Below the pieces are notes generated by a model. The model saw nothing but the letters and a program-made list of their open reading frames with translations, was not told the origin of the DNA and made no database searches. The position numbers were made by a program, and so were the translations under genes. DNA of 64,000 nucleotides, taken from IMG/VR virus record IMGVR_UViG_3300035510_000375; one strand, 5' to 3'. Below are positions 27,901 to 64,000 of the stretch, piece by piece. Numbering within the stretch: position 1 is the stretch's first letter; each line of letters begins with the position of its first letter. Origin of the DNA: an uncultured virus (IMG/VR IMGVR_UViG_3300035510_000375) (Duplodnaviria; Heunggongvirae; Uroviricota; Caudoviricetes).

Positions 27901-30434
27901 TTACTCTCCTTGTCCATATCTATTATGTTCTAATATCATTGTATCATTATTTACTTGTACAATTTTATACAATTGATGTGATTCAGTTTTTTGATAGGTT
28001 TTGGCTACAAATTGATTTTCTCTGCGGAAGCCCGTCACCATAATCTTGGTTCCACGCTTAAACCAACCTTCTTCTTTAACTTTTTTGCTACCATCCGCTT
28101 CTATTTCTGATATTCTGCGGTTATACATAGCATAATATTCTTTAGTAAAATTTACTGTTACTACACCACGAGTTGTTAAAATAGTTACTGATGATTTAGC
28201 ATCGTCTTTACTAATTATCGTACCTATGATTTTGTATAACTTATAAATAGGAATTTCTTTTCCATTTCTCTTAAAGAAATAATCAACTTGAGGATCTTCA
28301 GGTAGGTTAAAGAAATCTATCACTCCGTATCTATATGTATTAATATTTATTAATTCATGCTCGTGATAATAAAAACATAATGCTTCCATTTCCCATGCTG
28401 ATATAGTGCCTTCTGCGTACTTATCCCAAGATTCTTTAAATAAAAGATAATTAAACTCTTTAAGCACCGAATCTTGGTTATTTGTCAACCAAGCCCTGGC
28501 CGCATCCATTTCTTTCTGATATATCTTTTCCCAATTAGATTGTAAAATACAAGTATAACCATTAATTACTTGTAATAATTCCATATTAAAGAATTGAGAA
28601 TAAAATCTATCACAAGCTTCGTCAAATACATAATATTTTCCTACTTTTTTATTTTTCTTTAAGTAATCATTAAATATATATATTCGCTTTGTGAAAGTTA
28701 AATCTTCTGGCACTAAATTTCTTTGTATTAAACCATTAAAGTTTTGTAAAGTTAATTTTTTCTTAGGCTCACTAACTTTTAAAATATAATAAATCATAAT
28801 TAAAACTCTAGGTTCAATATTTAACTCTTTTGCCCATTGCTCCTCAAGGTTATCAAAGCTTCCCGCTTTAATAAGAGAAATCATAGCGGTTTTATTTAAT
28901 GGACAACGATTTAAAAAGTCAATAAAACTTTTATAAGGGCGGCCCGCAATAATTTTATTAATAACATCTGTATTAATACCACTTAATGCTTTTAAACCAA
29001 ACAAGATTTGATTATTCTCTACATCAGGTTCAAAACTAAAATTAGATTTATTAATATCTACTAAAGTTACTTTAATTCCTCTTGAAATAATATCCCCTAG
29101 TGCTTTTGCAGTTTTTGCATAGTCAGTAGTACCATTATCTTCTAAAGAACCACTATTGCTAATTAAACAAGCACAACTCCAAAAAATAATTGGATATTTA
29201 TATGCTAAATTCATCTCTTGTAAGGCTACTAAAGAATATGCAAGACAATGCGATCTATTAAAAGAATATCCACGCTGTACTTTAAGCAGTACATCCCACA
29301 CATAATGTGCCAATTTTTCTGAACAATTGTTCTTTTTAATGTTTTCATAAAATATATCTTCGCATTCTTGGAATAGCTTACCTTGCTTTTTTGCAATACC
29401 TTTTCTACATTTATCTGCAAAAGTTAAGGTATTTCCGCCTAATCTAGGTTCTTGGACTAATGACATTAGCCCCTCTTGTGACTCACAGATCCCGTCTGTA
29501 ATGGCAGAATGGCTAGATAACCAATCTATTTCTTCTTGACTTAATCCATAATTTCGCATTTCTTTTAACCACAAATTGATATTTTTACGATATTTAGACC
29601 AAGTTACCAAAGGGGTATCGCTATTCTTATCTGGCGCCATTAGTCTGATAACTGAATTTAAAACACTAAGGTCGTTAACACTTTTTGGCTTGGCTAAAGC
29701 TATACCTTGAATACCACTTTGCTGTTCCATCTGAAATAATGATAAAATTTTATGTTCCCACACCATTTTCCACATATCTTCAGATGTTCTATCTAATTTA
29801 TAAATACCTATAATTTTTTCGTATGTTTCACGTAAAGTAGCTTCTCTTGTTTCATATCCATAATTGCAAATTAAATCAAGACAGACATGAAGTTTATCCA
29901 TAGCCTCGACTGAGAGCGCATCATACTTGATAAGGCTCACGGCCTCTGCGTCATGAAGATCAAATTGAGTACAGATTGTACCATCCGGCGCTCGCATTAA
30001 TCCAGTAGATAAGGTAAAGGGTTCATCCACGAAGATAACACCACCCGCATGAATACCTGTTCCGCATATTAACCCTTCTATTTTTTGAGCTACTTGCCAC
30101 AGTTCTTGGTAATCTGTATCCATAGCTTGAACAAAGGCGGTAACTGGTTTAAAATCTTTTTCGGGATTACCATAATATACTTCTGATAAACTTCTTATTT
30201 GACCTCTATCTGCGGGAATGAGACTTGCTAAATACTGTGCCTCATCATTATCTATACCTAAGCCTCTTGCTGCAGTTAATATAGCAGATTTAGTTTTTTC
30301 TGTTCTAAAAGTAATTACATTTGATACTCTATCTTCACCATAAAATTCTCTAAATTTTGATAAAACTTGTGCTCTTTTACTACCTTCTATATCAAAATCA
30401 ATATCAAGAACAGATACACGTTCTGGGTTCAAAA
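27901..30434 (-). CDS. dnaE: DNA polymerase III alpha subunit, exon 2
   Basis: NPERVSVLDIDFD, GIHAGGV, LIKYDAL, FQME, YSFNRSH; spliced product 1287 aa. Confidence 0.9.
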
Positions 30435-31399
30435 CACTTTTTCCATTGTCACCAATGGAGCTGACTATCTCTTACTCTCCTTTATAAAATATTTCCAAAC
30501 CTAAATACTTTTTATTATTTTTAATCCTATTACATATTTCTTGCCTTACTATTGTAGGATTTATCATTTTTGTGTATTTATTTTTAATTAACCATTCAGC
30601 AGCTTCTCTTGTCGTTTCAAAATTATGTTTGTTATTTTCTTTATCTATTATAATTAATGGTTTTGATTGTTGCTGTCCTGGGGTAAATCGTTTAACTCCA
30701 TTTTCATTCAATATTCTATCTATAGTTGAATGATCACAGCCAATTTCTAATGCTACCTTCCGAGCAGATTTTAATCTCATATATTTTTTTATAATATCAT
30801 CTATATCCCAATTATATAATTGAGTAGCTCTTCCGCCCAAGGTGCTATTGTAACCATTAAAATAACTATCATAATATTCTATCCAATATTTTTCTCTTTC
30901 ATTTAAATATTCATTATCAATTTCTTCAATTTCTTCACATTTAAAGTTATTAATACCATATTTATTAAATGCTTTATATAAAATAATTTGAGAAAAGTAC
31001 TCTTTATTACTATTATTTTTATGTTGTTGAAATCTTTTTTTCAACTGTTTTAATAGTTTGCCCTATGTAAACTTTTTGGTTAATTAAATTTGTAATTTTA
31101 TAAATATGTCCCATTTATTTTCTCCTTTCGGTTTAAAAGAAAATAAAGGAGAGTCCTCGCGCTTCGAATAGTGATAAAATCTATTCTACTTCCTTACACT
31201 CATCAGGAATAGTCGATACACTCCTTACTTTCACTTGTTTTTCCAATGAAAAGTAAAAAAGCACGGTATTGAGTTTAATTAAAACTGTCCACCGTTAGCA
31301 AAATTAATTTTAATAATTTCACACCGCTTTTTCTTGCGTTCACGAGGTTTTTTGTAGGCATGTCACCATGCCTAGGAGACCTTTAAACCCTATGGGTTA
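30435..31399 (-). mobile_element. Group I intron in dnaE, 965 nt, with frameshifted GIY-YIG endonuclease in the P8 loop
   Basis: Exon TGGAGAT pairs with GTCTCC (U-G); terminal G; GACTA...AAGAGATAGTC; splicing gives WR-F-LNPER. Confidence 0.9.
30472..31114 (-). pseudogene. GIY-YIG homing endonuclease, disrupted by one extra A in an A7 run near 31035-31041
   Basis: RBS AAGGAG, ATG 31114 gives MGHIYKITNLINQKVYIGQT; continuation KRFQQH..EREKYWIEYYDS..GYNST is in the +1 frame. Confidence 0.8.
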
Positions 31400-32729
31400 A
31401 TCTCCAACTATAAGTTTTAGTTTCTTCTCTTAAAGGATTAATTTGTGTAATACCTAAACAATATAAAAGAATAAAACCTACACCTGAGCCTCTTCCTGGG
31501 CCTACTATAGAATTTGCTTCCCAACATAAATCTATAATCTTTTGAAGATTAAGATAATAGGCTGACCAATGTGCTTTATTTACGTTAGAAGATACCCAAG
31601 TCATTTGCAGATTGCTATTAATTTCATTATAAGCTTCTTGATTTTGTAAATCTTCATGTTTATTAATACCTACTATTATTGCTTTAACTAATTTTTTATC
31701 TCCGTCGAAAGAAGAATTATTAAAAGTTTCTAACATAGGAATTTTATCTATCCATTCTTGAGTTAAAGAAATATTACTATAATCATTCCATTTAAGACTA
31801 GGAATTTTTAAAGGTTTTAAAATAGAATAATCTTCACATAAATTTTGAATTTTTGTAATATTACTATAAGCCCTATCTAATTCCTCTCTTGTTAAATCTA
31901 AATGAGATTCTAATTCTTCTGTGTTCATTAAATAAGTTGTAGCATAAAATGAATCTACTTCTCTATCTCCATCTTGGGCATGAAGAAAAGCTTTATGAAT
32001 ATTTTTATCTTCTTTTTGTAAATAATGAGAATCTGTAGTAATAATATAATCTATATTTAATAAATTAGATATTTCTATTAATTTTCTATTTACATATGTT
32101 TGCTCTTTTGAAGCAGAAGGCTGTAATTCTAAATAAAAATAATCTTTCCCGCCAAAAGTGTTACATATTAATTGACACCAATTTAAGATTTTATTCCATA
32201 AATCTGTGTCTTGCTCTTGAGTATCTCTATATTTTAAAAGTTGAGTTGCAAGCATACCACCAAGGCAAGCGCTAGAACCAATAACATGGCCTGGCTTCTT
32301 TCCTATAATTTCTACTATATCTTGATAATAAGTAGGAACTCTTCTTAAGCCTCTACTCACATAACTTCTCATCCAAGCTCTAGTAGATAATTCACAAATT
32401 TGTTGATAGCCTTGCAAATCTTTAGCTAAAAGAATAAAATGATAATATTTATCTTCTCCCGCTACATAATTTTCATTATTTAAACCATCTCTACATAAAT
32501 AAATCTCATTACCCATTATAACTTTTAATGGAATATTTTTCTCTTTAATTTTATTATATATTTTTTCTACTCTCACTGCAGATGCTATAGTTTCATGGTC
32601 TGTAACTGCTATAACTGAATGATTTAATTCTATTGCTTTATTAATTAAATCTTCCTCTTTAATAATACAATCCCGAATCCTGAAATTCGACATCTGGGTA
32701 TGATTATGTAAACTACCTGGATAATTCAT
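31400..32729 (-). CDS. dnaE: DNA polymerase III alpha subunit, exon 1 (PHP domain)
   Basis: SLHNHT, AVTDH, GNEIY, HFILLAK, TTDSHY, GPGRGSG. Confidence 0.9.
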
Positions 32730-38638: not shown

Positions 38639-38980
38639 TTAAAAAGCACTTGCTTGAATTGCGGGTTTTATATTTATTTTTGTATCTTCCATTTCAATAA
38701 ATTCATAATTGTAATCAGTGGCAAATAAAGGAATAATTTTACAAGTACCTTTATTACTTTTGCACCATAAGAAAAGGTTATTATATTTTCCTCGTCTATT
38801 TTTATAAATTGATATTTTCATATCGGGAACTTCAAAAGTTTTACTATCAAGGATTGGTTGAAGTGATTCTATATCTTCGCTTGTGGCTTTCAGCATAATG
38901 GCCCCTATATCAATTTTGTCTGCAATTGCTTTGGCGCCTCTAAGCAAGTTTTGATCCGGAATTTTCTCTTCCTTCCAACT
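38639..38980 (-). CDS. dnaB: Replicative helicase, exon 2
   Basis: DQNLLRGAKAIADKID..KNRRG; spliced product 511 aa. Confidence 0.85.
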   Translation of the reverse strand, partial: SWKEEKIPDQNLLRGAKAIADKIDIGAIMLKATSEDIESLQPILDSKTFEVPDMKISIYKNRRGKYNNLFLWCKSNKGTCKIIPLFATDYNYEFIEMEDTKINIKPAIQASAF

Positions 38981-40099
38981 CGTTTAATCCTTACATTTCT
39001 ATAAGGAACTGACTATCTCTTAAAGTTATAAAATTTTTTATAACTTAAAACCTATTTCGGTTCTCATGCACTTCGTTTCCTAAAATGCAGACGCATCTCA
39101 GCTAGCGTCCCTACTCCCCAGCTTGTTTCAGACTTTGGGGATAGTCGATACATGGCTCAATCCATTTTTTGATTGACTTTTTATAAATTGGCAAATTTTT
39201 ATATGATTCTCCATAAATTATAGCTTTTATAGCAGAATTGGTAGCAATGTGATTATATTGCGGATAAAGTTGATTTGGAGTTTGACCTTCTGCATACTTT
39301 TTTCTTATTTCCATAACTTGCTCATCAGTAAATTTAGCTTTTTTATTTTTTGAGCCTTTTATTCCAACTGACATAATTCTTATTGGATATGACTCATTTT
39401 CTTCGGACCAAATTTTACCTTGATTAATCATTGATAAAGTAGACTTTGAAACAAAAGGAAATTTATCATTTATTTCGGTTAGGGTTAAATCAGTTTCTTT
39501 TAAAAGTTTTTTTATTTCATTAACTTCTTTTTGATTAAGTTTTGCTTGGCTGTGATTTTCTCCTTTTAATGCAAAACTTTCTTGTCCGCCCAAACCTATA
39601 TTATAGCCTTTTTCTTTATTTGTTGAATTATAATAATGAATCCAAAATCTTTCTTTATCATCTAACTCTTCTTTTAAGCACTCTTCTAAAATACTTAAAG
39701 AAAAATTACTTATACCATATTTCTGCATTGCTAAGTGTATTGGAGTATTAATATCTCTTTTATTTTTTAAAGAATATTTTTCAGGCTGTCCAGATCTTAA
39801 ATGCTCTGAATATCTTCTTTCAATATTAATACTTTGTCCCACGTAAACTTTACCATTTACATTATTTGTTATTAAATAAATTCCAATCATATTTTTCTCC
39901 TTATTATGACAATGCAAAATATCATAATAAATCGAATGGATTGCATCACACGGGATTCTCATGGTAAATTGCATTTAGTTATTTACTGTACAATATACTT
40001 TAAAGTTCCCCGTTAGCATTTAATAAACTTTGTCCAAAAATTTATTAAATACCCCTAGTGAGTTCTAGGATAAGGTTTTATTGGCAGTTACTTTTTCCT
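38981..40099 (-). mobile_element. Group I intron in dnaB, 1119 nt, with intact GIY-YIG endonuclease
   Basis: TGGT|AG pairs with CTGCCA (U-G); terminal G; GACTA...AAGAGATAGTC; splicing gives STQLNG-SWKEEKIPDQNLLRG. Confidence 0.88.
39111..39890 (-). CDS. Intron-encoded GIY-YIG homing endonuclease (259 aa)
   Basis: RBS AAGGAG, MIGIYLITNNVNGKVYVGQS..RYSEH..ERFWI..GYN; C-terminal HTH repeats. Confidence 0.88.
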   Translation of the reverse strand: MIGIYLITNNVNGKVYVGQSINIERRYSEHLRSGQPEKYSLKNKRDINTPIHLAMQKYGISNFSLSILEECLKEELDDKERFWIHYYNSTNKEKGYNIGLGGQESFALKGENHSQAKLNQKEVNEIKKLLKETDLTLTEINDKFPFVSKSTLSMINQGKIWSEENESYPIRIMSVGIKGSKNKKAKFTDEQVMEIRKKYAEGQTPNQLYPQYNHIATNSAIKAIIYGESYKNLPIYKKSIKKWIEPCIDYPQSLKQAGE

Positions 40100-41293
40100 A
40101 CCATTTAACTGCGTAGAAGAGAGAATAAACACTCCATAATCATTAGCTAAATCTTTAAGTCTAACACTAATTAAAAATAAAATATTATCCTCGCGGAGAC
40201 CGGATACCTTTGATTTGGAGGATATTTCTGAAAGAATTTTCATACTTGTGTGCAGATAATCCAAACACAAGTAACGCACACCATGCTCATGAATCCCACG
40301 TTTTAATGTATTCTCAATATCTTGCAAAGAAAAATCATGTAACTCTTGAATATAAATGGGAGATTTTTGCAAGATATTAGAAGCTTTTACCACGCGCTCC
40401 CATTCTCCTTCATAATATTCTCCCGTCAAAATATGCTCTTCATCTACATCTGATATAAAAGCTATCATCATAGTTTGAATTTCATTTATCTCTTGTTCTG
40501 TTGTAATATATAAAGTAGGTTCTTTAGAACCATTCTCTACCCATTTATGTTCTTTATAATCATATAACTCACTGCAGGCAAAGTTACACGCGTCCGCTAT
40601 CATTGCTCTCGTTTTGCCGAGGCCCGAGGGGGCCGAACGTAGGTAGAACTTTTTTAACCGAGCCCCGCGCGTGATAGTATTAATAAGAGGACCAAACATT
40701 GGATATCCATACTCTGGATTCTTTTTAAAAGATTCTATTAACTCTAATACATTTTCACCAGCTTGCGCAGATTGTTCATTATAATCATCTGCATATTTCA
40801 TTTTAATAGCAGATATCTTAGAATCTATGGTTTCCGCAATCTGTTCTAATGAAGTATTATCTAGCCATTCTTCTTGAGTTTGCTTCTTTTTAGTATCTAA
40901 AATGTTATCATTATCATACAACCAAGAGAGGTCTAAACCTATTTTTTGATACATTCTAAATAAAGTCATTTTCTTCATTCGACTATAATAATAATCAAAA
41001 GTAGCTAATTGAGTAACTTCCGCAAGTTTATTTAAATATTCAGTTCCTTTGTTCGCTTTATAAATTGCCATCTTTTTTGGGCGTTGCTCTAAGTAATCTT
41101 CTATTGTGCTAATAGTAATTTCTTTAGCCCCAAGATTATGTAAATTATAAATAGAACCAAAAATAATTTTATGAAACTCTTGCGGAAAATCTTCTTCATA
41201 AAAATTATATTTTTCATTATCCAATAGTAAAGGATTAAGAAAAATTGAGCCTATTACATTTATTATTGCTGTTGTATCTATATATTTAGACAT
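40100..41293 (-). CDS. dnaB: Replicative helicase, exon 1
   Basis: SAPSGLGKT Walker A, ITTEQ, CLDYLH, STQLN. Confidence 0.88.
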
Positions 41294-44428: not shown

Positions 44429-45103
44429 TTATGTAGCTTTTTTAGGTTTTCTACCACAACTCTTAGCCTCAGAACAATAGCCAAATAATTCACATTTAGG
44501 TTTAAACTCTTGTTCAATAATTACTTTCCATTCATCAGAATATTCTTTTAATGCGTTGATTATATCATTCATTAATTGACGAAATTCCCAATAGGCTCTT
44601 GAACAAAGTCTTTGGTGAGACATATCTATCAACTGGCGGAGGTTAGTTCTAATCACAACATCTGTTGTCATACCAAGAGGCAAAAGATTTGCTACATCCT
44701 CCCTAGGTATACCAATACTATTAAGTAAAACACTAGAGCGCTGGATTTGCTCCATGCAATCTTGATAAATTTCTTTTGCTTCATCATTATTCTCAATAGA
44801 AGATGGAATGATATAATCAAAAGCACTATAATCAAGATATCTTGTGCTTGCTTGTAGTCTAGTAGGTGCTCCGCCTATGTGTGTATACAATTCGCGGATA
44901 ACCCTTGTGGAATATCCTTTTAAAATTAAATACACTTGCGGGAACTCGCTTACGCGCCCATGACCGCTTTCTAAACAGCTAAGTCCGCGCTTGTAATTTT
45001 TATCTTTATCTGAACTATCTGCGCCCCAACAAACTCCCGCTTCTTTTCCCATTAATTGGAGAGGATGTCTTGTTGTGTCTACTTGTATAATTACTTTTCC
45101 CAT
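44429..45103 (-). CDS. thyX: Flavin-dependent thymidylate synthase
   Basis: GHGRVSEF, RELYTH..QASTRY, EDVANLLP, NLRQL..RLCSRAYWEFR. Confidence 0.85.
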   Translation of the reverse strand: MGKVIIQVDTTRHPLQLMGKEAGVCWGADSSDKDKNYKRGLSCLESGHGRVSEFPQVYLILKGYSTRVIRELYTHIGGAPTRLQASTRYLDYSAFDYIIPSSIENNDEAKEIYQDCMEQIQRSSVLLNSIGIPREDVANLLPLGMTTDVVIRTNLRQLIDMSHQRLCSRAYWEFRQLMNDIINALKEYSDEWKVIIEQEFKPKCELFGYCSEAKSCGRKPKKAT

Positions 45104-45104
45104 T

Positions 45105-46064
45105 TTATTTATTCCCTATAGTTGAATTATAGCCAAAATTATAACTATCATACAACCCAATATAATATTTTTCTTTTTCATTTAATTGCTCTCTTGGGCA
45201 CTCTTCTAATAGCTCCCAAGAAAAAGACCATAAACCATACTCTTGCATGGCTTTATATAGTTTATTATTTGCGGGGGTATCGATGCCCAATCCGCACTTA
45301 GCATGGTCTGTCCACCTAGACGCGGTATTCGTTGCCTGACCGATGTAGCACTCGCCCGTCTCAACATTGGTTATTTTATAGATGCCAGTCTTTTCATTAG
45401 TACCTAGTACATTTGCACATAAAGCTTTAAGTGGCTTTTGAAACCATGTCTGCCATATTAACATACTAAGAACTCTAGGCTTAGATAACGTTTTTTTAAC
45501 TTGTTCTAGCCTTTGTATATCTAATTTATCAACATCAGATATTTGTAAACAATAGAAAGAAAGATTATCTTGAATTTCCTTCTCGCGGATGCGGGCTTGA
45601 ATGCTCGCTGCTAACGTATCTTTTATCTTTTGTAATTCTTGATTAGTTTGCGCATATTCTAAATTTAATTTATTTATTTTATTATTATATGCAATTTCAG
45701 CATTTTCATATTCCGTTTCTAAATTCTCAAAGTATTTTTCACTAGCTAAAGAAGTAGTTTGTTTATATTGCTCAAACTGTACAGTAACTTTATCTTTTTC
45801 AGCGGTATATAATTGTTGTACTTTTGCTAAATCTTCTTTTTCTATCTGTTCATAAAGATGTTTATCTTGCTCAAATTTTTCAACTAATTGTTGGTGTTCT
45901 TTTTTAATATGCTCACAATTTTGTTGTGTTAATTTATATTGGTTATCTAAATATTCTTGTTCTTTATATTTAGTAACTTTTATCTGATTTGCATTAATAT
46001 AATATTTAATTCCTATAATTAAACAAATTAATGCAAATATAAAAAAAATTATTTCAAAAATCAT
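45105..46064 (-). CDS. Membrane-anchored coiled-coil protein with C-terminal GIY-YIG domain
   Basis: N-terminal TM; TGIYKITNVETGECYIGQA..RW..EKEKYYI..GYN. Confidence 0.75.
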   Translation of the reverse strand: MIFEIIFFIFALICLIIGIKYYINANQIKVTKYKEQEYLDNQYKLTQQNCEHIKKEHQQLVEKFEQDKHLYEQIEKEDLAKVQQLYTAEKDKVTVQFEQYKQTTSLASEKYFENLETEYENAEIAYNNKINKLNLEYAQTNQELQKIKDTLAASIQARIREKEIQDNLSFYCLQISDVDKLDIQRLEQVKKTLSKPRVLSMLIWQTWFQKPLKALCANVLGTNEKTGIYKITNVETGECYIGQATNTASRWTDHAKCGLGIDTPANNKLYKAMQEYGLWSFSWELLEECPREQLNEKEKYYIGLYDSYNFGYNSTIGNK

Positions 46065-50724: not shown

Positions 50725-51284
50725 CGTAGCGCTCTTATGTTTCCATAAGCACTGACTATATCTTAATTGTCTTATGACAACGATTACCATTTCGAACTAT
50801 GTACCAATAATAGTCCTACTCCTCCGCTCCGAGGATAGTCGATACAGGCTACAATTACTTGGAGACTTTTCTTTTTGGATAAAAATTTCTGATAGGATAT
50901 GTTTCATTTTCTTTTCTATATCTTCACATTTAGAATAGTATTTATGTAAAGCTGCATAGCAAGCTGTATTATCTTCTTTTCTAAAATGCTCTGATATTCT
51001 ACGTCTTATATTTATTGCTCTTCCAATATAAATTTTATTATTAGGAAAATTAATTTTATAAATACCAGAAATATGTTGCGGAATTTCATTATACTTCATA
51101 AAAGTCTCCTTTCATTGTTTCCCACGGGATTACCATTTAATATTTTACATTATAATATTAAATTATAAATGAGGCATTATTCTATTTTGCCCTAAAAAAT
51201 ATTAGGCAGGCTTCCCCGTTACCCATACTTTATATATGAGCCTTGTGGTGAACAAGAAAGGTAATAACACAGGCATTATTACAT
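50725..51284 (-). mobile_element. Group I intron 2 in gyrA, 560 nt, with truncated GIY-YIG
   Basis: GGT|AT pairs with ATGCC; terminal G; GACTA...AAGATATAGTC; splicing gives NGTQGIG-VGASSSLP. Confidence 0.88.
50797..51099 (-). pseudogene. Truncated GIY-YIG endonuclease (N-terminal fragment only)
   Basis: SGIYKINFPNNKIYIGRA..RRISEH, then runs into intron core; no catalytic E/GYN segment or DNA-binding domain. Confidence 0.75.
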
Positions 51285-51572
51285 ACCAATACCCTGAGTT
51301 CCATTAACGATGTTGTAAAAACCTTTAGACGGAAGAACTGATGGATACTTTTCAGTATCATCATAATTATCTCTCCACTCTTCTACAGTATTCTTATCTA
51401 TATCTTCAAATAATTTAAGTGAAAAATTGCTTAATCTTGAAGAAGAATAACGAGGCGCTGCCCAATTACCAGTTTCCATTAAGTTTCCGCCATTACCTTC
51501 TATTTCAATCAGCGGATACCGCATAGCAAATGGTTGACCCGATCTCATTATAACGCCTTCTGCACTTGCGTC
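51285..51572 (-). CDS. gyrA: DNA gyrase subunit A, exon 2 (catalytic Tyr)
   Basis: QPFAMRYPLI..GN.G..AAPRYSSSRL; PSVLP. Confidence 0.88.
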
Positions 51573-51847
51573 CAATAATTATTAACCATAGGCTTTTTAT
51601 CCTATGCTCTGGAGCTTTCGCTCATTTTCATCAAATAGTCTTTTCTATTTCAGTTTAGCATATCTTTTCATCTTTATTAGATGTCGCGGCCTCGTGGAGG
51701 GATTATATCTTTTCACCCTCTATGCGTTGCCCCTGACTATAGTTTCTATAGCCTTCGGTTCGGATTAGCATATCATTTCTGATTTAGCCTTCCCGCTTAA
51801 TTCCGCGATTTTAACACGGCAACTAAAAATTAATTTTTTACTACTCT
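51573..51847 (-). mobile_element. Group I intron 1 in gyrA, 275 nt, ORF-less
   Basis: CACGGT pairs with GCCGTG; terminal G; P7 GCATA...AAGATATGC; splicing gives YIHG-DAS. Confidence 0.88.
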
Positions 51848-52069
51848 ACCGTGGATATACATTCGGGCTACCGAACCTATAGCTTTCAAAGTCTTTTTAA
51901 ATGGTTTATTAGGCAAGAACTTATCTGTATATAAACAATAAAAAATTTGTCTTGCAGAGGGTTTTAAACAATCTCTTACATCTACAAGCGCTCGTGATTG
52001 GAGTACAGCTCCCGCATAGGTAGTAAAACTATCTTCAATAATAGATTGCATATTTCTTTCTATATTCAT
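51848..52069 (-). CDS. gyrA: DNA gyrase subunit A, exon 1
   Basis: SRALVDVRDCLKPSARQI..YIHG. Confidence 0.88.
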
Positions 52070-52138
52070 ATTTTTCTCCTAATTATTTTTCTTTATTATA
52101 ATTATAATATTATTTTTAATTAAAATCAAATAAAATTT

Positions 52139-52744
52139 TTATTCATGAATTGTAGCAAAATCTACATTTTTAAATATATAATCTGTACGATAACTTACAT
52201 CATCACCCATTAGTTCTTCTAACATTTGGATTGCGTTAGGATTAGGTTTTAATACTTCCATTCTTTGAAATTCATCCGAGAACATTGAACGTTGGGCTTG
52301 CTCTGTAGATAAGCTTCCTAAGCCTTTGTTTCGCTGAACTTCCCCTTTAATAGAATCTCGTACTGCATTCATTTCTTCATCTGTAAAATAATACTGTTCT
52401 TCTTTTCCATTTTTTACAATATAAAGCGGAGATTTTAACCAGCATAATCTATTCTCTTGTATAAATTGTGGCGCAAGATATTGCAAAGCGGACATAATCA
52501 ACAAGCCTATGTGCGCGCCATCACTATCTGCATCGCTACATATACCTATTCTACCATAGCGCAATTTAGCGGGATTATATTTTCCTGGTACAATATTCAT
52601 AGCTTTTAGTAATAATTTAATTTCTTCATTATCAGCAATTCGCTCTTCATTATTACTAAGGCAATTAATCATTTTTCCTCTGATTGCAAGAATCCCATAC
52701 TTGGAGTAATCACGTGCATTAGCCATGGCACCTGCAGCACTATC
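52139..52744 (-). CDS. gyrB: DNA gyrase subunit B, exon 2
   Basis: DSAAG, IRGKMIN, DADSDGAHI, QRNKGLG; spliced product 613 aa. Confidence 0.9.
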   Translation of the reverse strand, partial: DSAAGAMANARDYSKYGILAIRGKMINCLSNNEERIADNEEIKLLLKAMNIVPGKYNPAKLRYGRIGICSDADSDGAHIGLLIMSALQYLAPQFIQENRLCWLKSPLYIVKNGKEEQYYFTDEEMNAVRDSIKGEVQRNKGLGSLSTEQAQRSMFSDEFQRMEVLKPNPNAIQMLEELMGDDVSYRTDYIFKNVDFATIHE

Positions 52745-53394
52745 CGTGTGCTCCTATATTTCTATAGGCACTGACTATCTCTTCACTCTGGTTTGTCAAA
52801 CCTTCATCGTGTCCTCTATTTCGAAATATGTATCAATAATATTTCTACTACAGGTCTCGCCCTGTATAGTCGATACAGCTTATTCTATATCTTTATAAGT
52901 TTGGTGTGTTACTATATTATATATAGTAAACCATGCTTTATCTGGCACATATTTTAACCAAACTTGTTTTGGACTCATACCATTATCATAATCTTGTCTC
53001 ATTTGCAAAACTTGTTCTTTTGTAAAAGCTTTTGTATTATTAGCAGCAATTTCAGAAGCATTTGCTTTTGCTTGGTGAGAATGCCAATATTTATTTTCTG
53101 CATTATTATATTCAGGATGAATATTTTTCCAATTTTCAAAATACCATACTTTTTGCAGCCCTCTTTTAGAAATTTTATCTTTAAATTCTGCATAAACAGT
53201 TCTAAAAGGAATATGATTAAAATATCAAGTTTTGTCCAAAAATTTTTCAATATAAAATCTTGCCACGGGATTGACTTCGCCTAAACTTGTTTTGACTTAC
53301 AAGTGTAACGGTCAGCTTTCCCCGTTAGCTACTTATTTTTAATTAAGTAACCCCACTGATGAGGTGGTAAAAAGGATTAGGGCAATAATTACTT
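52745..53394 (-). mobile_element. Group I intron in gyrB, 650 nt, with endonuclease remnant
   Basis: AGGGT|AA pairs with TTGCCCT; terminal G; GACTA...AAGAGATAGTC; splicing gives IVEG-DSAAG. Confidence 0.9.
52880..53224 (-). pseudogene. Start-less C-terminal DNA-binding part of a homing endonuclease
   Basis: Open frame ..KAFTKEQVLQMRQDYDNGMSPKQVW..IYNIVTHQTYKDIE resembles the C-terminus of the dnaB-intron endonuclease (KFTDEQVMEIRKKYAEG..IIYGESYKNL). Confidence 0.7.
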
Positions 53395-54630
53395 ACCCTC
53401 TACTATTAACAGCGTAGACCCAGGTCCTAAGAACTCCGCGTCTTTTAATTTATCTGAATTAAATACTTTTTTACTAGCATTTTTTTCTATTTCTTTTGAA
53501 GTTTCAAGGATTTGACGTCTAGCTCTATCTGCAGCTTTTTCTGCCTTTTGAACTTTAATTAACATCTTAATAATATTATCAAAGTCTGTACTATTCTGAA
53601 ATTCATCAAGTCCTTCTTTAAAAGCTTTTGAAGCAAGAGTACGAAGATTAGGATTATTTATCTTTGATTTCGTTTGATTTGCAAAAGAGGGTTCAGCAAC
53701 TTTGCAATTAATAGCATAAACTAAACCTTTCCTAATTAAATCTGCATCTAAGTCTTGTCCGCTCATTTTCTTGATTTGTGTTGTTAATGTTGTTTTAGCT
53801 CCTGTAACTGGACTTCCGCCCTCATTACAATACAAACCATTAACAAAAACGTGTGCAGCTTCTTTCCCCGCAGTCCAGCAGAAAGCAATTTCAACCTCAT
53901 CTATTTCATCTTTTGCTTTACAAATAATAGGCTTCATTAATGGAGATTTTGCTTCTGCTATAACAAAATCTGCAATACCATTTTTTGAATAAAATTCTTT
54001 TTTCTGTTTTGTCTTTTTATTAGTAATAATAAAATGTACACCTTTATTAAGATAAGATATATTTTTTATTTCACTTATTATTCTATCAAAAGTAAAAGTA
54101 TCAGTCATATTTTTAAAGACTTCTTTATCAGGAATGAAGCTAACAAAAGTACCATTTTTTTCTTTTGTATCAAATTCTTTATAGTTATCTAAAATTCCTT
54201 TAGTAAAGTTTGCGGCAGCCGCTTTTCCATCTCTATAGCTTTCAACTGCAAAAGATAGAGAAGAAAGACATACTGCACTTGCTCCAATTCCATTTAATCC
54301 AGAGCTGTTTGCATATGCACCTTTTGTAAATTTACCACCAGTATGAGATTCTGTATAAATAGATACTAATACATTTTCTCCATTGTCTCTAATACCAAAT
54401 GGCACTCCCCTACCATAATCCCTAACAGAAATTAAATTTTTATCTTCATCTACTTTAATCTCTATTACATCGCCATAGCCAGCCAGTGCCTCATCTGTTG
54501 AATTATTTACAATTTCTTTAAAAGCTTGATAAATTCCATCTGTATCATCAGAACCTAAATACATTGGAACTTTTTGTCTAATGCCCTCTCTAAAGGTTAA
54601 ATGTTGAATATCATTTATATCATATGACAT
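53395..54630 (-). CDS. gyrB: DNA gyrase subunit B, exon 1
   Basis: EIVNNSTDE, DYGRGVP, HTGGKF, GLNGIG GHKL motifs; LLIVEG. Confidence 0.92.
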
Positions 54631-57043: not shown

Positions 57044-57586
57044 CTAAATTTCTCCTTTATTTCTTTTTATATTTATATCATCAATAATTTGTTCAAGATT
57101 AACTGGTGTGCAGTTATGAGCATCTAAATTTACATTATAAGCATGGAATACATCACTCCACTTATCTTGAGAGTGAGTATGACCATGTAATGAAAAGATA
57201 GGTTTTATATCTTTATAATTTGCAACGAGCTGCGGATAATGACTAAGAATAAATTGTTTCTTTCCAGTAGAAAAACGATATCCCATTTGCACCTCATAAA
57301 TATTAGGTAGCTCGTTATAAATTTCAATGCGGGCGAGGGTGTCATGATTCCCGTAGGCTACGTATATTTTCCCATTAAGCCGAAGAATTTTCTCCATCCC
57401 GCGCTCATTATCTTTAAGCATTAGATCTCCAAGACAATAAACAATATCATCTTCTTTAACTACTTTATTCCAATTCTCTATAATTGCTTCATCATGTTCT
57501 TCAATACTATTGAACCCTCGCGACCCCCAGATGAACGGCTGGTCATGTGAGAAATGAAGGTCACTAGTAAGCCATATGTTCGTCAT
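57044..57586 (-). CDS. Calcineurin-like metallophosphoesterase
   Basis: SDLHFSH, LGD, GNHD, SHYP, HGHTH. Confidence 0.9.
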   Translation of the reverse strand: MTNIWLTSDLHFSHDQPFIWGSRGFNSIEEHDEAIIENWNKVVKEDDIVYCLGDLMLKDNERGMEKILRLNGKIYVAYGNHDTLARIEIYNELPNIYEVQMGYRFSTGKKQFILSHYPQLVANYKDIKPIFSLHGHTHSQDKWSDVFHAYNVNLDAHNCTPVNLEQIIDDINIKRNKGEI

Positions 57587-58085
57587 AAATATGTTCCTCC
57601 AAATATTCTACTATTGGTTTATTATCTTCTACTACATATATTCTATTAAATCCTTCTTCAAAAGTAGGTCTAGTTATGCTTGCGTGCATCCTCCCAACAA
57701 CAGAACGAGGAACGTAAGCTTGAGTATCTTTACGATTTTCATTTTGTGCAAGACATACTTCCAAAGGCTTCTTAATAAAAATTGCATTTATTTCAGAAGG
57801 GTTAGAGTCAATACGTGATAACAACTTGCTCCTAGAAGGCACACTTATATGAGTAGCATCCGCAAACACATTATATCCTTGCTCTATTGCTTCATTAATT
57901 AAATATACAAATTCTCTAAAGACTTCTACTTCATGTGTAAAATAATCTTCCCCTTCATCAAGTAATTCAAATCTAAGAGCGTCTCTTGAAATTACCTTGT
58001 CTGTTTTAGGATTTGAATGATTAGCTATCCAAGTACTCTTGCCCGATCCTGGCGCTCCTATCATTACATATAGTTTTCCATTCAT
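57564..58085 (-). CDS. Polynucleotide kinase-like P-loop kinase (AAA_33)
   Basis: GAPGSGKST, ISRDALR, DATH, R..VP. Confidence 0.85.
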   Translation of the reverse strand: MNGKLYVMIGAPGSGKSTWIANHSNPKTDKVISRDALRFELLDEGEDYFTHEVEVFREFVYLINEAIEQGYNVFADATHISVPSRSKLLSRIDSNPSEINAIFIKKPLEVCLAQNENRKDTQAYVPRSVVGRMHASITRPTFEEGFNRIYVVEDNKPIVEYLEEHIYDEHMAY

Positions 58086-58524: not shown

Positions 58525-59271
58525 TTAATCTGCGCTTATTGGATTAAAGGATGCCATAGGCATTAACTTAAATAAATTCTGTTTATGTAATTTATCAATT
58601 TTTTCTTTTATTTCTGCGGGAGGCTCAATGCCTTCTCCGATATATTTATCAAGAGTCTCATAGGTAAAGCCAAGATTATCTTCATCGGTCTTTCCGCAAA
58701 GACCATCTGATGGAGCCTTGTCTATCATCCATGACGGAAGTCCAAGTTCTCTACCAATAGCTTTTACTTCTGATACCAATAGATTACTAAGAGGACTAAA
58801 ATCGCCTGCACCATCTCCATATTTAGTAGCATATCCTACCCAATCTTCGCTTTTATTACAGGTATTTGCAACTCTTCCATTGCAGCTTTGACTTACCGCA
58901 TAAAGCGCCGCCATTCTAATACGTGGAGGGAGATTAATTGTAGCCTGTGTTGAAAGAGAGCTTGCTTCATATTCAATTTCTGCAATAAGTTCTTTAACTG
59001 CCGCCCCAATATTTACAGTACAACTATAAATATTTAAATAAGTGCAAATATCCATAGCATCAGATAGGTCACTTTGGGTGTTATTAGGCATTCGTACTCC
59101 AATAACTCTATTTGCACCTAAAGCTTCTACACAAAGTGCGGCGACCACGGTTGAATCCTTCCCGCCCGAAATTCCCACTACCGCATTACAACCTTTACCA
59201 TTTTCCTCAAACCAATCTTTAATCCATTGTACACATCTATCTTTTACTTCTTTTGCATTAAAATCCTTCAT
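58525..59271 (-). CDS. nadE: NH3-dependent NAD+ synthetase
   Basis: GISGGKDS, N..PRIRM, NKSE..GYATKYGDG, KAPSDGL..TDEDNLG. Confidence 0.93.
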   Translation of the reverse strand: MKDFNAKEVKDRCVQWIKDWFEENGKGCNAVVGISGGKDSTVVAALCVEALGANRVIGVRMPNNTQSDLSDAMDICTYLNIYSCTVNIGAAVKELIAEIEYEASSLSTQATINLPPRIRMAALYAVSQSCNGRVANTCNKSEDWVGYATKYGDGAGDFSPLSNLLVSEVKAIGRELGLPSWMIDKAPSDGLCGKTDEDNLGFTYETLDKYIGEGIEPPAEIKEKIDKLHKQNLFKLMPMASFNPISAD

Positions 59272-59452: not shown

Positions 59453-60655
59453 CTATTGATGATATTTTAATAAAAATTGATTTGAAACCGCTTTAAAGCT
59501 TTGGGTTCCATCTTGAGAACGGAATACAAGTCCTTCCCTCATGCCGCTATCTATTGTAGAATCTCCAGTAGCAAAATCTAACATTTCATCTACTGTTGGT
59601 AATAATTTAAAATGGTCATGCAAAATAGGAACCCAAGGAATATCATAAGCTGACATTATTTTAGCAGACTCCACAGAATTAAGGCGTCCTCTATCCGAGA
59701 AGATAAGATTAAAGCCAGCGAACTCGTGCCCTTTAAGAGAGTAATCACGCTTCTGTATGCCGGTCCCGTAAACTTCGCCTTGTAAAGTGGCCCACTCTAG
59801 GTTATATTTTTTTACCAAGTCACCAAGAACTTCCTCAAAATGATATTTCTCTGACATCTCTGTGTATGGATTAAACTCATAATAGCAACCCTTATTAGGC
59901 TTATCAAATACTACATTTCTACTACAGATATAATATTCATGCTTTTTCTTCCCTTTTCTTTTATAAGTTGCAGTTGTAGAACTACCATCTATTTTTTCTG
60001 TTACTATCCATTTATCCTTGCTCGAAAGAATATGAGGTAGGTTCTGTATCCTCTCCTCATCGGTTTTTTTCACCCACTCTGGCCACGGATTCTTTTTATC
60101 TTTCCTTTTTCCAAAGAAAAGGAACATTAAATTTTTACCCCAACTTCTTTTCATAAGCCATTTTGCCCATGATTTTTTAAATATCTCTGGGTGTCGCTGT
60201 GCCATTTTCTTATATTTATTTGCGGGCACCGCTTTTCTTTGATTATCTTCCGCAACTGCATAAGTTACATCTAAAGCCGCAGTCAAAAATTCATGCTCAA
60301 TATTTCCGCCTTGCTCAACTTTATCTTGCAATCTCTGTAACCAATCTGGTGCATTACCATCTATAATAAAGTCATTAAAAGACATAAGTAATCCTTGTGA
60401 AATAGACTTACACATCTTTTGAGTTTTTATTTTAAAATGTTTAGGTTCAAGAAATAAAAATGGCTCTACTTCAGGAACTTTTGAGTCTATTTCAAAATAT
60501 ATAGCATAATTACCGGGTTTAAATTGTCCTTTTCGCACTACAACTCGCCAACCGCCAACAATAGCAGACTCTACCCTATCATACCCTGGAAGTGGTTCAA
60601 TCGCATCTATTTTAACTGTATATACGAGTTCTCTAGTACCCTCTGAATTTAACAT
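59453..60655 (-). CDS. RNA ligase (Rnl2/DRB0094-like)
   Basis: YFEIDS, SQGLL, KTDEERIQNL, TEKIDGSS, CSRN, QGEVYG, REGLV, FKAVS. Confidence 0.88.
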   Translation of the reverse strand: MLNSEGTRELVYTVKIDAIEPLPGYDRVESAIVGGWRVVVRKGQFKPGNYAIYFEIDSKVPEVEPFLFLEPKHFKIKTQKMCKSISQGLLMSFNDFIIDGNAPDWLQRLQDKVEQGGNIEHEFLTAALDVTYAVAEDNQRKAVPANKYKKMAQRHPEIFKKSWAKWLMKRSWGKNLMFLFFGKRKDKKNPWPEWVKKTDEERIQNLPHILSSKDKWIVTEKIDGSSTTATYKRKGKKKHEYYICSRNVVFDKPNKGCYYEFNPYTEMSEKYHFEEVLGDLVKKYNLEWATLQGEVYGTGIQKRDYSLKGHEFAGFNLIFSDRGRLNSVESAKIMSAYDIPWVPILHDHFKLLPTVDEMLDFATGDSTIDSGMREGLVFRSQDGTQSFKAVSNQFLLKYHQ

Positions 60656-60994: not shown

Positions 60995-61780
60995 TTATAA
61001 AAATTTAATTTCTTCACCATGAATAATATTTTCTAATTCTATAGCTTTATCATTAAAAAGCATTATTATTTGTTTATTTTCTATTTTAGGATAAATTCTT
61101 GTGCTATGAAAATGCCCAAATAACCAAAGTTTATAATTTAAATTACGTTCTATTTGTTCTAAATATCTTTCCATAGTAGTATCTACTGTTGACTGGTCTA
61201 CTACAGATAAAAATAAATCAGTTGGCTGAAATGTGAATGGACAAGTATGTGACAATACTAAATCAACATTCCAATCTTCTTTCTCAAATATACAAATACC
61301 ATCAGATTGCTCTTGTTCACTCAGCTGTTCTGCGGGAAACCATGACCAATTTAGTTCTAGTCTACGGTATTTATCGACAGAATAACCACCTGGAATTATA
61401 GCTGTTTTATAACCATTAATATCATATACAGCAACTTCATCAAGAGCATACTTAATATAAGGAAATTTATTCTCTACATATACAGTATTACCAAAATATG
61501 TTTCAGTATGCCATTTATCAGACTCTTTTTCCATACAAATACTAGGTCTTTCTTCGTGGTTTCCTCTAACTAAAAAATAAGTAAAAGGATAAGTTCCTAA
61601 TTTCTTTTTAGTATCTTCATCTCTGTGATTAAAAAAGAAGTTTAATCCTGCATCACCAAGTAAAATTATTACTTTTTCTGCTTCATTATATTCTTTATCA
61701 TCTTTATTTCGTTGATAAAAGGCTCTTACAGGACGCCAATTCCCATGTATATCACCCAAAATATATATTTTTGGTTTCAT
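60995..61780 (-). CDS. Calcineurin-like metallophosphoesterase
   Basis: GDIHG, LGDAG, RGNHE, SHTCP, FGHFH. Confidence 0.9.
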   Translation of the reverse strand: MKPKIYILGDIHGNWRPVRAFYQRNKDDKEYNEAEKVIILLGDAGLNFFFNHRDEDTKKKLGTYPFTYFLVRGNHEERPSICMEKESDKWHTETYFGNTVYVENKFPYIKYALDEVAVYDINGYKTAIIPGGYSVDKYRRLELNWSWFPAEQLSEQEQSDGICIFEKEDWNVDLVLSHTCPFTFQPTDLFLSVVDQSTVDTTMERYLEQIERNLNYKLWLFGHFHSTRIYPKIENKQIIMLFNDKAIELENIIHGEEIKFL

Positions 61781-61847: not shown

Positions 61848-62684
61848 TTACAAACCCACCTTTTTATCTATATAAGCTCTATCTTCACCTTTAAAAATAG
61901 GAATATTATTATCAATTATCCAATGATGTAGCTTTGTCTGCAAATCTGGAGTAGTAATATATTCATTTTTTATACAACAACTACCCCTCTGCTGAGTAAT
62001 AGGAAGCTTATCCCAATCTATATTCTTTTGCTCCAAAAGCATCTGTTTAACTTCTTTACTTGACTTACCTTGCAATTCCTTATGTGCAAAATTAGCCTGT
62101 CCTACAGAGTTAATGCTGTTACGTATTGCATCTAGCTGCCGCCATAAAATCAGATTGGTAACTTCTTCTTTTGGAATATTAAATGCACGAGAGTCAAACA
62201 TAGCACCTTTATCTGCGGCAGTTTGCAATTTAGCACAATATTTATTTATTTCTTGCTGTATTTCCGCACTTAGAAAGCCCTTTGAAGCTTGACATTCATA
62301 ATCTGCAATTAAATTCGTTACCTTTGCGGTAAATGCTTTATTAAAAGCAAGAGTAGCCATAGACGCACTAATACTTACTAACTTTTCTAGCTGATTATCA
62401 AACCAAGCTTGCGTTTCTAATTTTTCATAGTCAGTTAGAATAAGTGTAATTTCATCACTTTGAGTGTATCCTACTACACATCCCGCAATATTCTCACAAA
62501 GATACTTCATGGTTTTTTGCATAGACTCCATAAACACTTTATCAAACGGCTTGCAGAAACCTTTAGTAAAAGTGTGTCCTGCTCTCATATCTAGCCTAAT
62601 CGCCACAGGCGTCCGCCGCATTAAACTAATTTTAGGTATGTTCTCATAGTTTTTCATTCTATTGCCCAAATCATCTCGGATCAT
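61848..62684 (-). CDS. Thg1-like tRNA(His) guanylyltransferase / 3'-5' polymerase
   Basis: RMKNYE, IRLD..FT, YTQSDEI, FDSRAF, WRQLDA.RNSI, RGSC. Confidence 0.88.
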   Translation of the reverse strand: MIRDDLGNRMKNYENIPKISLMRRTPVAIRLDMRAGHTFTKGFCKPFDKVFMESMQKTMKYLCENIAGCVVGYTQSDEITLILTDYEKLETQAWFDNQLEKLVSISASMATLAFNKAFTAKVTNLIADYECQASKGFLSAEIQQEINKYCAKLQTAADKGAMFDSRAFNIPKEEVTNLILWRQLDAIRNSINSVGQANFAHKELQGKSSKEVKQMLLEQKNIDWDKLPITQQRGSCCIKNEYITTPDLQTKLHHWIIDNNIPIFKGEDRAYIDKKVGL

Positions 62685-63085
62685 TATTTTATCCTCTTTT
62701 CCCAATAGTAATTCCAATCAGTAATTTTTATTTTATTATAGTCAGTTGTATCCTCTTCAATATCTTTTCTATTTGACCATACATCAAGGTCTTCTACAAT
62801 AAAACTATTCATAGCGCAAAATAAGAGGTATCCAAAATAAGTTCCATCCCCGCATCCAAAATCAATATATTTAGTTATGACAGTTTCAGTCTTTTTGTCA
62901 ATAAGCATAACGACAACAGAAGTATAAGTACCCGACTTATCTTCAAATACTTCAACGTGACGATTGACCTGATGCATAACAAAGCGACCTCTCCAAAGAG
63001 GATCTTGCGCAATATTTTTATTTAAGGTACGAATTTTTTTATTTATTTTACGTTGGTTTTGTTTAATTTGTTTGCGTGTGTTCAT
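62684..63085 (-). CDS. Hypothetical basic protein (133 aa)
   Basis: LNKNIAQDPLWRGRF; RBS AAGGA. Confidence 0.6.
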   Translation of the reverse strand: MNTRKQIKQNQRKINKKIRTLNKNIAQDPLWRGRFVMHQVNRHVEVFEDKSGTYTSVVVMLIDKKTETVITKYIDFGCGDGTYFGYLLFCAMNSFIVEDLDVWSNRKDIEEDTTDYNKIKITDWNYYWEKRIK

Positions 63086-63150
63086 ACTTAATACTTCCTT
63101 TCTTTTTTATTTTCTATAATTATTATAATATAATTTTTATAAAAAATCAA

Positions 63151-64000
63151 TTAAGATTTTAAATTAGGATTAGTAATTTTTATATAAGTACCTTTCATAC
63201 CCATATTTTGTACTGTTGCTACCTTTAATTCTTTCATTTTTGTTATTAAATTATTATATACCGGGCGGGAGATGCAGGTCTGCTCTACTAACCTAGATAT
63301 GGTAATATTACCCTCGTATCCTATTTCATCAATGATAGCTTCATAGGCTTTTCTTTCTGCGTTAGTAAGATGCTCAAAAAATTCTTTCTTTGAAATATTA
63401 ATAGTGGGATTAACAATAGAAGAATAGATTATTTGCATCACTCCTTCTTCCATAATTGCGGCAGCCCTGGTTCGGAGCTCATGAGCAACTCCCGCATCTT
63501 TATCTAAAACTCTATCTAATAATTCATAAATACCTTGTTTAGCTCCTTCAATATCTACACTATTACTATTTTTAATTAAAGATAATGTACTATGCATAAT
63601 ACCTTGTGGTCTAATACAATCAATATAATCTTTACCCTGCAAATACATATCTAAGAAATAGGTTAATCTCCAAGCATTATAAATTTTTTTGTTGTCTAAT
63701 TCTACATAAGATAATGTATGTTTAATTTGCCCGCTAATGCTTTTTACAGTCTTATCAATGTCATAATGTGTGATATCTTCCCTATTGGATACAAAATATT
63801 GATTCCATAATTCTTCATATTTAGGATTAAGAATAAAATAATCTGTATATAAAATTTCAAGAAAATTAATATTCTGTTTCATGAACATTAATCTTAATTC
63901 TCTAATATCTTTTACTTCGATATGTTCATCCTCAAAATGAAGTTCTTTTGACTCCCATTTTTCATGTAAACATATATCTTCAAAAGTAGGCAAAATAATC
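63151..64000 (-). CDS. Putative nucleotidyltransferase fused to a CodY-like C-terminal winged HTH (5' end beyond window)
   Basis: [27 protein letters not shown] nucleotidyltransferase-type segment; C-terminus LTNAE..EG....S.......ISR.V..N...K......GMKGTYIKI. Confidence 0.7.
   Translation of the reverse strand, partial: [282 protein letters not shown]

Follow-up and report, generated by a model that had tools for sequence, protein, structure and literature searches.

The window analysed here is a 64,000-nucleotide stretch of DNA from an uncultured virus (IMG/VR IMGVR_UViG_3300035510_000375) and has the gene content of a tailed phage: it carries genes for a tape measure, tail proteins, DNA polymerase, primase, helicase, ligase, topoisomerase and ribonucleotide reductase, as well as for an amidase-SH3 lysin. 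Related phage records are about 110-140 kb long. At the end of the window, an open reading frame on the minus strand (63151..63999), cut by the window edge, encodes the 3' part (residues 61-342 and the stop codon) of a fusion between an RlaP-like nucleotidyltransferase and a wHTH (winged helix-turn-helix) domain. Locus L001, which matches the 282 window residues at 100%, supplied the complete gene; its 342-aa product is termed P0002 and its start codon lies 180 bases past the window edge. Because residues 1-60 are beyond that edge, G43-S44 and D55-x-D57 are known from L001 and not from the window. The earlier note had proposed a nucleotidyltransferase fused to a CodY-type DNA-binding domain; the C-terminal sequence that it quoted is present letter-for-letter within the open reading frame, and the complete gene confirms the fusion. 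A one-off fusion or a frameshift artefact is ruled out, as 98 of the 120 homologues among the matches listed are full-length fusions covering at least 91% of P0002. In a monomer model (pLDDT 94.9, pTM 0.82) built on 92 of these 98 sequences, 6 close ones being left out, the Pol-beta core of P0002 extends to about residue 137 and is followed by a helical domain (141-225), a long helix (233-256) and the winged helix (264-341).

The genes that come after the fusion gene, all on the minus strand, encode a Thg1 tRNA-His guanylyltransferase (61848..62717), a calcineurin-like phosphoesterase (60995..61780) and an RNA ligase (59453..60655), assigned with Pfam and PHROG, and a P-loop kinase (AAA_33; 57564..58085), assigned with Pfam and with a putative polynucleotide-kinase role. 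Among 12 non-redundant fused loci of at least 10 kb, an RNA ligase gene is near 6, Thg1 near 5 and a kinase near 6; the corresponding numbers for 68 unfused loci are 11, 17 and 35. Often the fusion gene is first or second in its operon, with RNA-repair genes downstream and a promoter-like site in front. An NAD synthase gene (58525-59271) also lies within the RNA-repair cluster and is near only 1 of the 12 fused loci. At L001, the phosphoesterase and fusion genes, adjacent in most relatives, are separated by an endonuclease-like ORF (3948-4394 and about 430 bases after it), apparently frameshifted by eye and with no Pfam match. Elsewhere in the window, HNH or GIY-YIG endonuclease genes interrupt other genes (24530-27534, 27901-32729, 38639-41293, 44429-46064 and 50797-54630); the split genes are those for ribonucleotide reductase, DNA polymerase and DnaB helicase, with a gyrase-B-like gene in pieces by eye, and further endonuclease genes are found at 45105 and 50797. 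These are probably introns or mobile inserts.

Contigs near-identical to the fusion region were found in animal-gut libraries. Contigs from four animal-gut RNA libraries also cover the region, in three of them at 99% or more for most contigs; such contigs cannot show transcription. Cultured phage records gave 29 matches to P0002, none covering 80% of the query, and the fused family was found in none of 401 sampled bacterial genomes at E <= 1e-18, in a search run without a positive control. Word-index searches for shorter and longer forms, by an insensitive method, returned two matches and none, respectively. The sigma-A-type promoters with TG before the -10 element and the bins holding relatives suggest a Firmicutes host.

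Residues ~1-256 form an RlaP-like Pol-beta nucleotidyltransferase with intact GS/DxD/D motifs. The catalytic residues are kept in 89 to 92 of the 92 aligned fusions (G43 in 92, S44 in 91, D55 in 90, D57 in 89 and D91 in 92). D91, the third acidic residue of the active site, belongs to a D-I-R motif (63907..63909, minus strand), the R93 of which is part of the predicted interface described below. A Pol-beta-type N-terminus, as read at first from the letters, is borne out by three lines of evidence: a match to PHROG 388, shared by all 20 unfused relatives scanned; Pfam matches at E <= 0.01 to Polbeta, NTP_transf_2 and RlaP in 66, 43 and 21 of the 92 members; and the comparison of the Atlas model with an RlaP cluster, in which 234 residues were aligned (TM 0.62/0.79). 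The Pfam RlaP score of P0002 is 12.9 bits, under the cut-off of 23; the unfused protein P0112, which nests among fused proteins, scores 28.1 bits, above it. P0002 displays the RlaP traits of a Pol-beta fold, a GS motif and three acidic residues and, in the model, the C-terminal helical domain that forms the RNA cleft in RlaP (helices 141-256); residues 141-230 of this domain are encoded by 63490..63759 on the minus strand. The only characterised RlaP, from Pseudomonas, adds one or two NMPs to the 3'-OH of RNA and labelled RNA, not protein or DNA (PMC12776372), and phage RlaP genes track RNA ligases according to another study (PMC7824862). Given the likeness to RlaP, the intact motif and the RNA-repair neighbours, the P0002 copy has probably retained activity as an RNA-end repair enzyme.

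The C-terminal part (residues 263-337; 63169..63393, minus strand) is a winged helix-turn-helix of the CodY type. Pfam HTH_CodY matches the window piece with an E value of 8.2e-6 (25.8 bits for a cut-off of 27), P0002 with 25.2 bits, also below the cut-off, and 79 of the 92 members at E <= 0.01. NCBIfam CodY matches residues 209-280 of the window piece with an E value of 6.7e-10 (38.7 bits, the full-length cut-off being 255), and all eight PDB sequence matches are CodY. A search with the family profile gives an E value of 1e-13 for CodY and of 0.04 for the protein that ranks next. In structure, the wHTH superposes on the CodY DNA-binding domain with Z 13.8 and an rmsd of 1.6 Å over 82 residues, versus Z 7.5 for the next wHTH, and the wHTH of an eroded relative gives Z 13.3 for CodY versus 9.4. 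The gaps in profile and structure scores rule out a generic wHTH, and the CodY likeness claimed for this region holds in both. The GAF domain of CodY is absent, the N-terminal part being the nucleotidyltransferase.

Residues of CodY were mapped on the phage protein by alignment to PDB CodY, with residue roles taken from PMC10415144. In the CodY-DNA structures described there, readout is mostly by shape, with two base-specific bonds per half-site, made by Ser215 and by the main chain of Met237 (PMC10415144). Several contacts are kept in P0002: Ser180 (T272), Ser204 (S295), Thr213 (S304), Val216 (V307), Gly236 (G327), Met237 (M328) and Thr240 (T331). The wing (residues 327-331; 63187..63201, minus strand) has the same residues in P0002 as CodY Gly236-Thr240; among 149 relatives, 99 have Val at position 328, and the CodY Ser182 position is Ala in P0002. 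At the start of the recognition helix (residues 303-311; 63247..63273, minus strand), S304, R305 and V307 are CodY-like. DNA-reading residues are replaced, Ser215 by P306, Val218 by N309, Arg222 by T313 and Tyr181 by N273, and these four are constant or nearly so across 32 host CodY proteins. The Ser215 position is Ser in 32/32 host CodY and Pro in 129/149 family members; the Val218 position is Thr in 55, Asn in 46 and Lys in 35, and Arg222 and Tyr181 are not kept in the family. Identity is 33% between the phage wHTH and CodY, 44% within the phage family and 89% within the sampled CodY set, the last value being biased upward because 30 of the 32 CodY sequences are best profile hits. In a FastTree phylogeny, the phage wHTHs form one long-branched group separate from 33 CodY sequences; as the tree has no outgroup, it does not give the donor or the direction. 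The phage wHTHs are a family sister to the CodY head and are not CodY proteins. The low dN/dS, far below 1 in seven pairs (e.g. dN 0.029 for a dS of 1.25) and indicative of purifying selection, and the persistence of the wHTH in relatives that lost the enzyme support it as a working, selected module. At seven loci (L006, L010, L086, L087, L089, L164 and L166), the final codons of the fusion gene contain the -35 element of the promoter-like site that comes next, so that C-terminal residues shared at these loci may be due to the promoter instead of the protein.

Searching 1.84 billion representatives with the wHTH profile gave 295 clusters (50% identity) at E <= 1e-10 and 1043 at 0.001, with at least one true CodY among the matches listed at E <= 1e-10. 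The best 150 wHTH relatives comprise 17 proteins with an intact enzyme, 71 with a degenerate one, 23 long proteins without an enzyme match, 38 short proteins (<170 aa), some of which are fragments, and 1 true CodY; the N-terminus is dead, eroded or tiny in 132 of these 150. A joint alignment was made of 109 unfused, 17 intact, 40 dead full-length and 53 eroded proteins, leaving out the short class and one chimeric-looking protein. Strict retention of 12 active-site residues is 0.92 in unfused and 0.93 in intact fused proteins, 0.22 in dead and 0.10 in eroded ones; retention of 13 wHTH core residues is 0.94, 0.96 and 0.93 in intact, dead and eroded proteins. The eroded N-termini are remnants of the enzyme (hhalign probability 99.2), and the eroded form folds well in a model (pLDDT 89).

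A separate intact enzyme gene is present in the same record in 5/5 dead, eroded or short cases for which gene context was available (L020/G015, L049, L058, L167 and L209), and a second enzyme copy in 0/6 intact-fusion genomes; the corresponding Fisher value of 0.002 overstates the case because the genomes are related and partly incomplete (several at 47-94%). At L058, the eroded wHTH gene and the intact enzyme gene are separated by a gene that resembles one for a sigma factor by eye (7837-8739). The enzyme tree places fused proteins within unfused ones and three unfused proteins within fused ones; in it, 36 of 38 dead forms group, with weak support, inside intact ones, and long-branch effects are possible. 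The wHTH and enzyme trees are from FastTree only, with weak inner support. The wHTH is single-copy in 9 of the 50 records searched and present in 2 of the 22 records at least 90% complete; its carriers form one clade with 47-63% protein identity. In the presence of a second, intact enzyme gene, the enzyme part of the fusion is reduced to a probable scaffold, a pattern for which the order of events is weakly supported.

A homodimer was predicted for P0002 with an ipSAE of 0.66, compared with 0.00 for the best of three controls, a pLDDT of at least 86 and at least 52% of contacts in agreement between runs; among solved pairs 20 of 30 attain the ipSAE mark, among single chains 1 of 23, a calibration that is only rough with a custom alignment. 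The predicted interface involves residues 66-75, 93, 96 and 244-255. One half is a short helix after the invariant P64 (residues 66-75; 63955..63984, minus strand), kept in dead and eroded relatives; the other is the end of the long helix before the wHTH (residues 244-255; 63415..63450, minus strand), at the place of the CodY linker helix. As the interface names no wHTH residue, and hence no wHTH-wHTH contact, the model leaves a CodY-like arrangement of the heads unproven. In eroded forms, occupancy is 0.91 and 0.97 for the two interface segments, 0.55 for the GS loop and 0.09 for the helical domain, which is deleted. Interface hydrophobics are kept at 0.91 in dead and 0.82 in eroded proteins, compared with 0.79 and 0.62 for the enzyme core. 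Interface retention is also fairly high in unfused enzymes (0.84), so that pairing may be ancestral. C70 is Cys in 14/17 intact, 33/40 dead, 26/53 eroded and 28/109 unfused proteins. Core residues such as P64, N118 and Y121 are also kept in decayed forms, residues kept for folding and for pairing being not fully separable; dead forms still have D91 and R93 (92%), perhaps because of a structural role or as a leftover ligand site. The short class is devoid of any interface element and would need another route for pairing. In CodY, the GAF lobe makes about 67% of the dimer interface and the heads pair only on DNA (PMC10415144). The simplest reading of the models is that the enzyme domain would do the pairing job of the CodY GAF domain.

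DNA targets were searched for in the window and in carrier genomes. CodY boxes occur at chance in the window (21 for 21.1 expected), and no CodY-box array is shared by nine carrier genomes, in which the maximum is 9 sites (<=3 mismatches) per 2 kb; in G035, a phage that lacks the wHTH, 12 such sites occur within 2 kb, many of them near-tandem repeats (L331:3803-5255). The strong promoters of these phages have a T-tract/A-tract pseudo-palindrome between -35 and -10, with CodY-like spacing and the central C and G absent. One such sigma-A-type promoter-like site starts at the base after the stop codon of the fusion gene (63122..63150, minus strand) and is a candidate site, not a diagnostic one; promoter-like sites show no excess in the region (36, compared with 36.1 in shuffles). 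The spacer pseudo-palindrome is present in 144 of 342 promoters in nine carriers and in 62 of 195 in the comparison set of 10 non-carriers. The non-carriers include the related, wHTH-less G031 (25 of 42 promoters) and G014 (22 of 38); the pseudo-palindrome is hence independent of the wHTH and was rejected as its site. A CodY box within 3 mismatches is found in 50 of 342 carrier and 15 of 195 non-carrier promoters, a difference confounded by clade. Other candidates were likewise rejected: a dyad of an A-tract and a T-tract as well as a palindrome at the -10 element (confounded by clade or present in non-carriers too), a CAGG-N9-CCTG dyad (mostly tRNA and other stem-loops) and a CodY-like palindrome repeated in G005 (absent from other carriers). 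No dyad, clustered word or palindrome array common to the carrier genomes was found. Short local arrays of CodY-spaced palindromes or repeats, differing per phage, are present in G005 (L301:8442-10200) and G011 (L270:659-1060) and may be origin or terminal regions. L013 has, about 1650 bases upstream of the fusion gene, a promoter-like site with a spacer at most 2 mismatches from a CodY box (by eye); host CodY might therefore read some phage promoters. The weak promoter trace is compatible with an AT-tract binder and equally with a host target.

We consider it on balance probable that the protein is a dimeric phage regulator of AT-rich DNA, in which the enzyme replaces the GAF domain as a dimer scaffold and, in this copy, probably also acts in RNA-end repair. 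The C-terminal part has the fold of the CodY DNA-binding head and would bind DNA as such. In the dimer model, residues 66-75, 93/96 and 244-255 would pair two chains and present two heads to DNA, standing in for the GAF domain and linker helix of CodY. AT-tract DNA would probably be read by shape, without the Ser215 contact. The likeliest targets would be the phage's own strong sigma-A promoters, on which the protein may act as a repressor, with a possible spill-over onto AT-rich host sites. The DNA-binding job would be constant across the family and the enzyme separable. As the GAF domain is absent, no CodY-type sensing of branched-chain amino acids or GTP is expected. The activities that the earlier note had proposed for the fusion fared less well than its domain reading. 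CodY-box targeting is not supported, in view of the changed Ser215, Val218, Arg222 and Tyr181 and of the box counts in the window and the nine carriers, with overlap with CodY sites being possible since CodY reads mostly DNA shape. Binding to CodY itself is likewise unsupported, the GAF lobe being absent and the modelled dimer using enzyme residues; nor is there support for regulation by nucleotides or nucleotidylation of a partner protein, the active site being lost in most carriers and the characterised RlaP having labelled RNA, not protein or DNA (PMC12776372). A rewired host CodY regulon is possible, though no result here supports it, and the same holds for gating by nucleotides or cut tRNA and for any effect on starvation or sporulation.

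Alternative readings place the target outside the phage genome or give the enzyme a sensory role. The dimer could occupy the CodY boxes of the host in response to neither amino acids nor GTP, keep the regulon in its fed state and so delay starvation responses or sporulation. CodY is by far the closest relative of the wHTH, the Met237 main-chain bond, one of the two base-specific bonds per half-site, can be kept (PMC10415144), Spo0A effector domains that lack the receiver occur in gut phages (PMC10294663), and the failure to find a private site common to carrier phages fits a target outside the phage. However, the four DNA-reading residues are all replaced, position 309 varies by subgroup (Asn, Thr, Lys), unlike a domain tied to one host site, and identity to CodY is 33% versus 89% among sampled CodY; we regard this reading as unlikely. 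A ligand-gated sensor, in which an NTP or a cut tRNA end would move the long helix in the intact subgroup and switch DNA binding, thereby linking tRNA damage to transcription, would account for the enzyme at the place of the CodY sensor, for a helix adjoining the wHTH in the modelled interface, for the position of the gene ahead of RNA-repair genes and for an intact subgroup that keeps the active site together with an almost fixed recognition helix. Against it, the nucleotide-binding residues are lost in most carriers and the entire cleft in many, the linker 257-262 is poorly conserved (0.28), and the three unfused enzymes nested among fused ones imply that enzyme and wHTH separate freely; such gating appears decidedly improbable. 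A combined scenario is also rather unlikely: a tRNA-repair enzyme would have replaced the CodY sensor, with cut tRNA or nucleotides gating the head on phage promoters and host CodY sites and so tying RNA damage to host starvation genes, before most lineages turned the enzyme into a dead scaffold and the protein into a signal-blind regulator.

Two further readings dispense with DNA. The wHTH might be an RNA-binding aid that holds tRNA for the enzyme, with no role in transcription, in line with an RlaP that acts on RNA only (PMC12776372) and with related phages rich in tRNA genes (26 in G007 and 14 in G008). This is very improbable, as the wHTH is kept in proteins with a dead or missing enzyme, lies up to ~10 kb from the intact enzyme gene, and is absent from 20 of 22 near-complete records with a related enzyme. 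The least probable reading is that the wHTH acts by protein contact, either poisoning dimers of host CodY or touching RNA polymerase: N310 and K314 match Asn219 and Lys223 of the CodY recognition helix and no DNA site was found, but the conserved positions are mostly those touching DNA in CodY, Arg222, Glu225, Ser226 and Ala227 are not kept, and the GAF lobe, most of the CodY dimer surface, is missing.

The regulator of AT-rich DNA that we favour appears to represent a family of phage gene regulators not described before. In Firmicutes, CodY is a master regulator, and its head has a large sister family in gut phages. Current annotations of members read hypothetical protein, CodY or ribosomal protein S25, and the Atlas clusters are hypothetical proteins. 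No description of the fused family was found in the open literature searched; subscription papers or supplements may list the fusion. A paper on CodY orthologues treats CodY as the sole protein known to combine GAF and wHTH domains (PMC9318921). Should the members of the phage family bind DNA, they would be phage regulators that could time phage genes or blunt the starvation responses of the host, in line with what has been proposed for phage Spo0A. Among its present-day members, the family shows an enzyme in the course of erosion to a probable pairing scaffold; were the gated-mimic scenario true, it would offer a phage-borne CodY mimic together with a full living series from enzyme to pseudo-enzyme to transcription-factor scaffold.

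Compared with CodY (GAF PF06018 and wHTH PF08222; PDB 8c7t and 2b0l; PMC10415144), the phage protein has the same wHTH fold, the same wing and backbone contacts and a long helix before the wHTH, and it is probably a dimer too. The phage dimer is modelled through the nucleotidyltransferase domain, not a GAF four-helix bundle; the GAF domain, Ser215, Val218, Arg222 and Tyr181 belong to CodY only, whereas the phage family occurs in phage-like records. With RlaP (PF10127; PHROG 388; PMC12776372; PMC7824862), the fusion shares the Pol-beta core and helical domain, the three acidic residues and a gene setting with RNA ligase, Thg1 and kinase. It differs by the added CodY-type wHTH, by a P0002 score under the Pfam cut-off and by the many catalytically dead relatives. 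The closest printed precedent is the effector-only Spo0A of gut phages, in which the DNA-binding domain of a Firmicutes master regulator is likewise kept without its sensor; the regulator is a different one, and the fusion has an enzyme in the place of the sensor and a diverged recognition helix. The main text of that study does not mention CodY (PMC10294663). The top Foldseek match of the model is an Exiguobacterium nucleotidyltransferase-like protein (PDB 3c18, E 5.5e-5), which aligns over model residues 14-336 with 10-11% identity and an rmsd of 16-22 Å; its domain arrangement is another one, at best an independent parallel. We take 3c18 to end in an HTH domain and to belong to the YgxA family. 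A nucleotide-handling enzyme, or its remnant, coupled to a DNA-binding head is also found in BirA, NadR and NrtR; their enzyme folds are unrelated to that of the fusion, and for them gating by a ligand is established.
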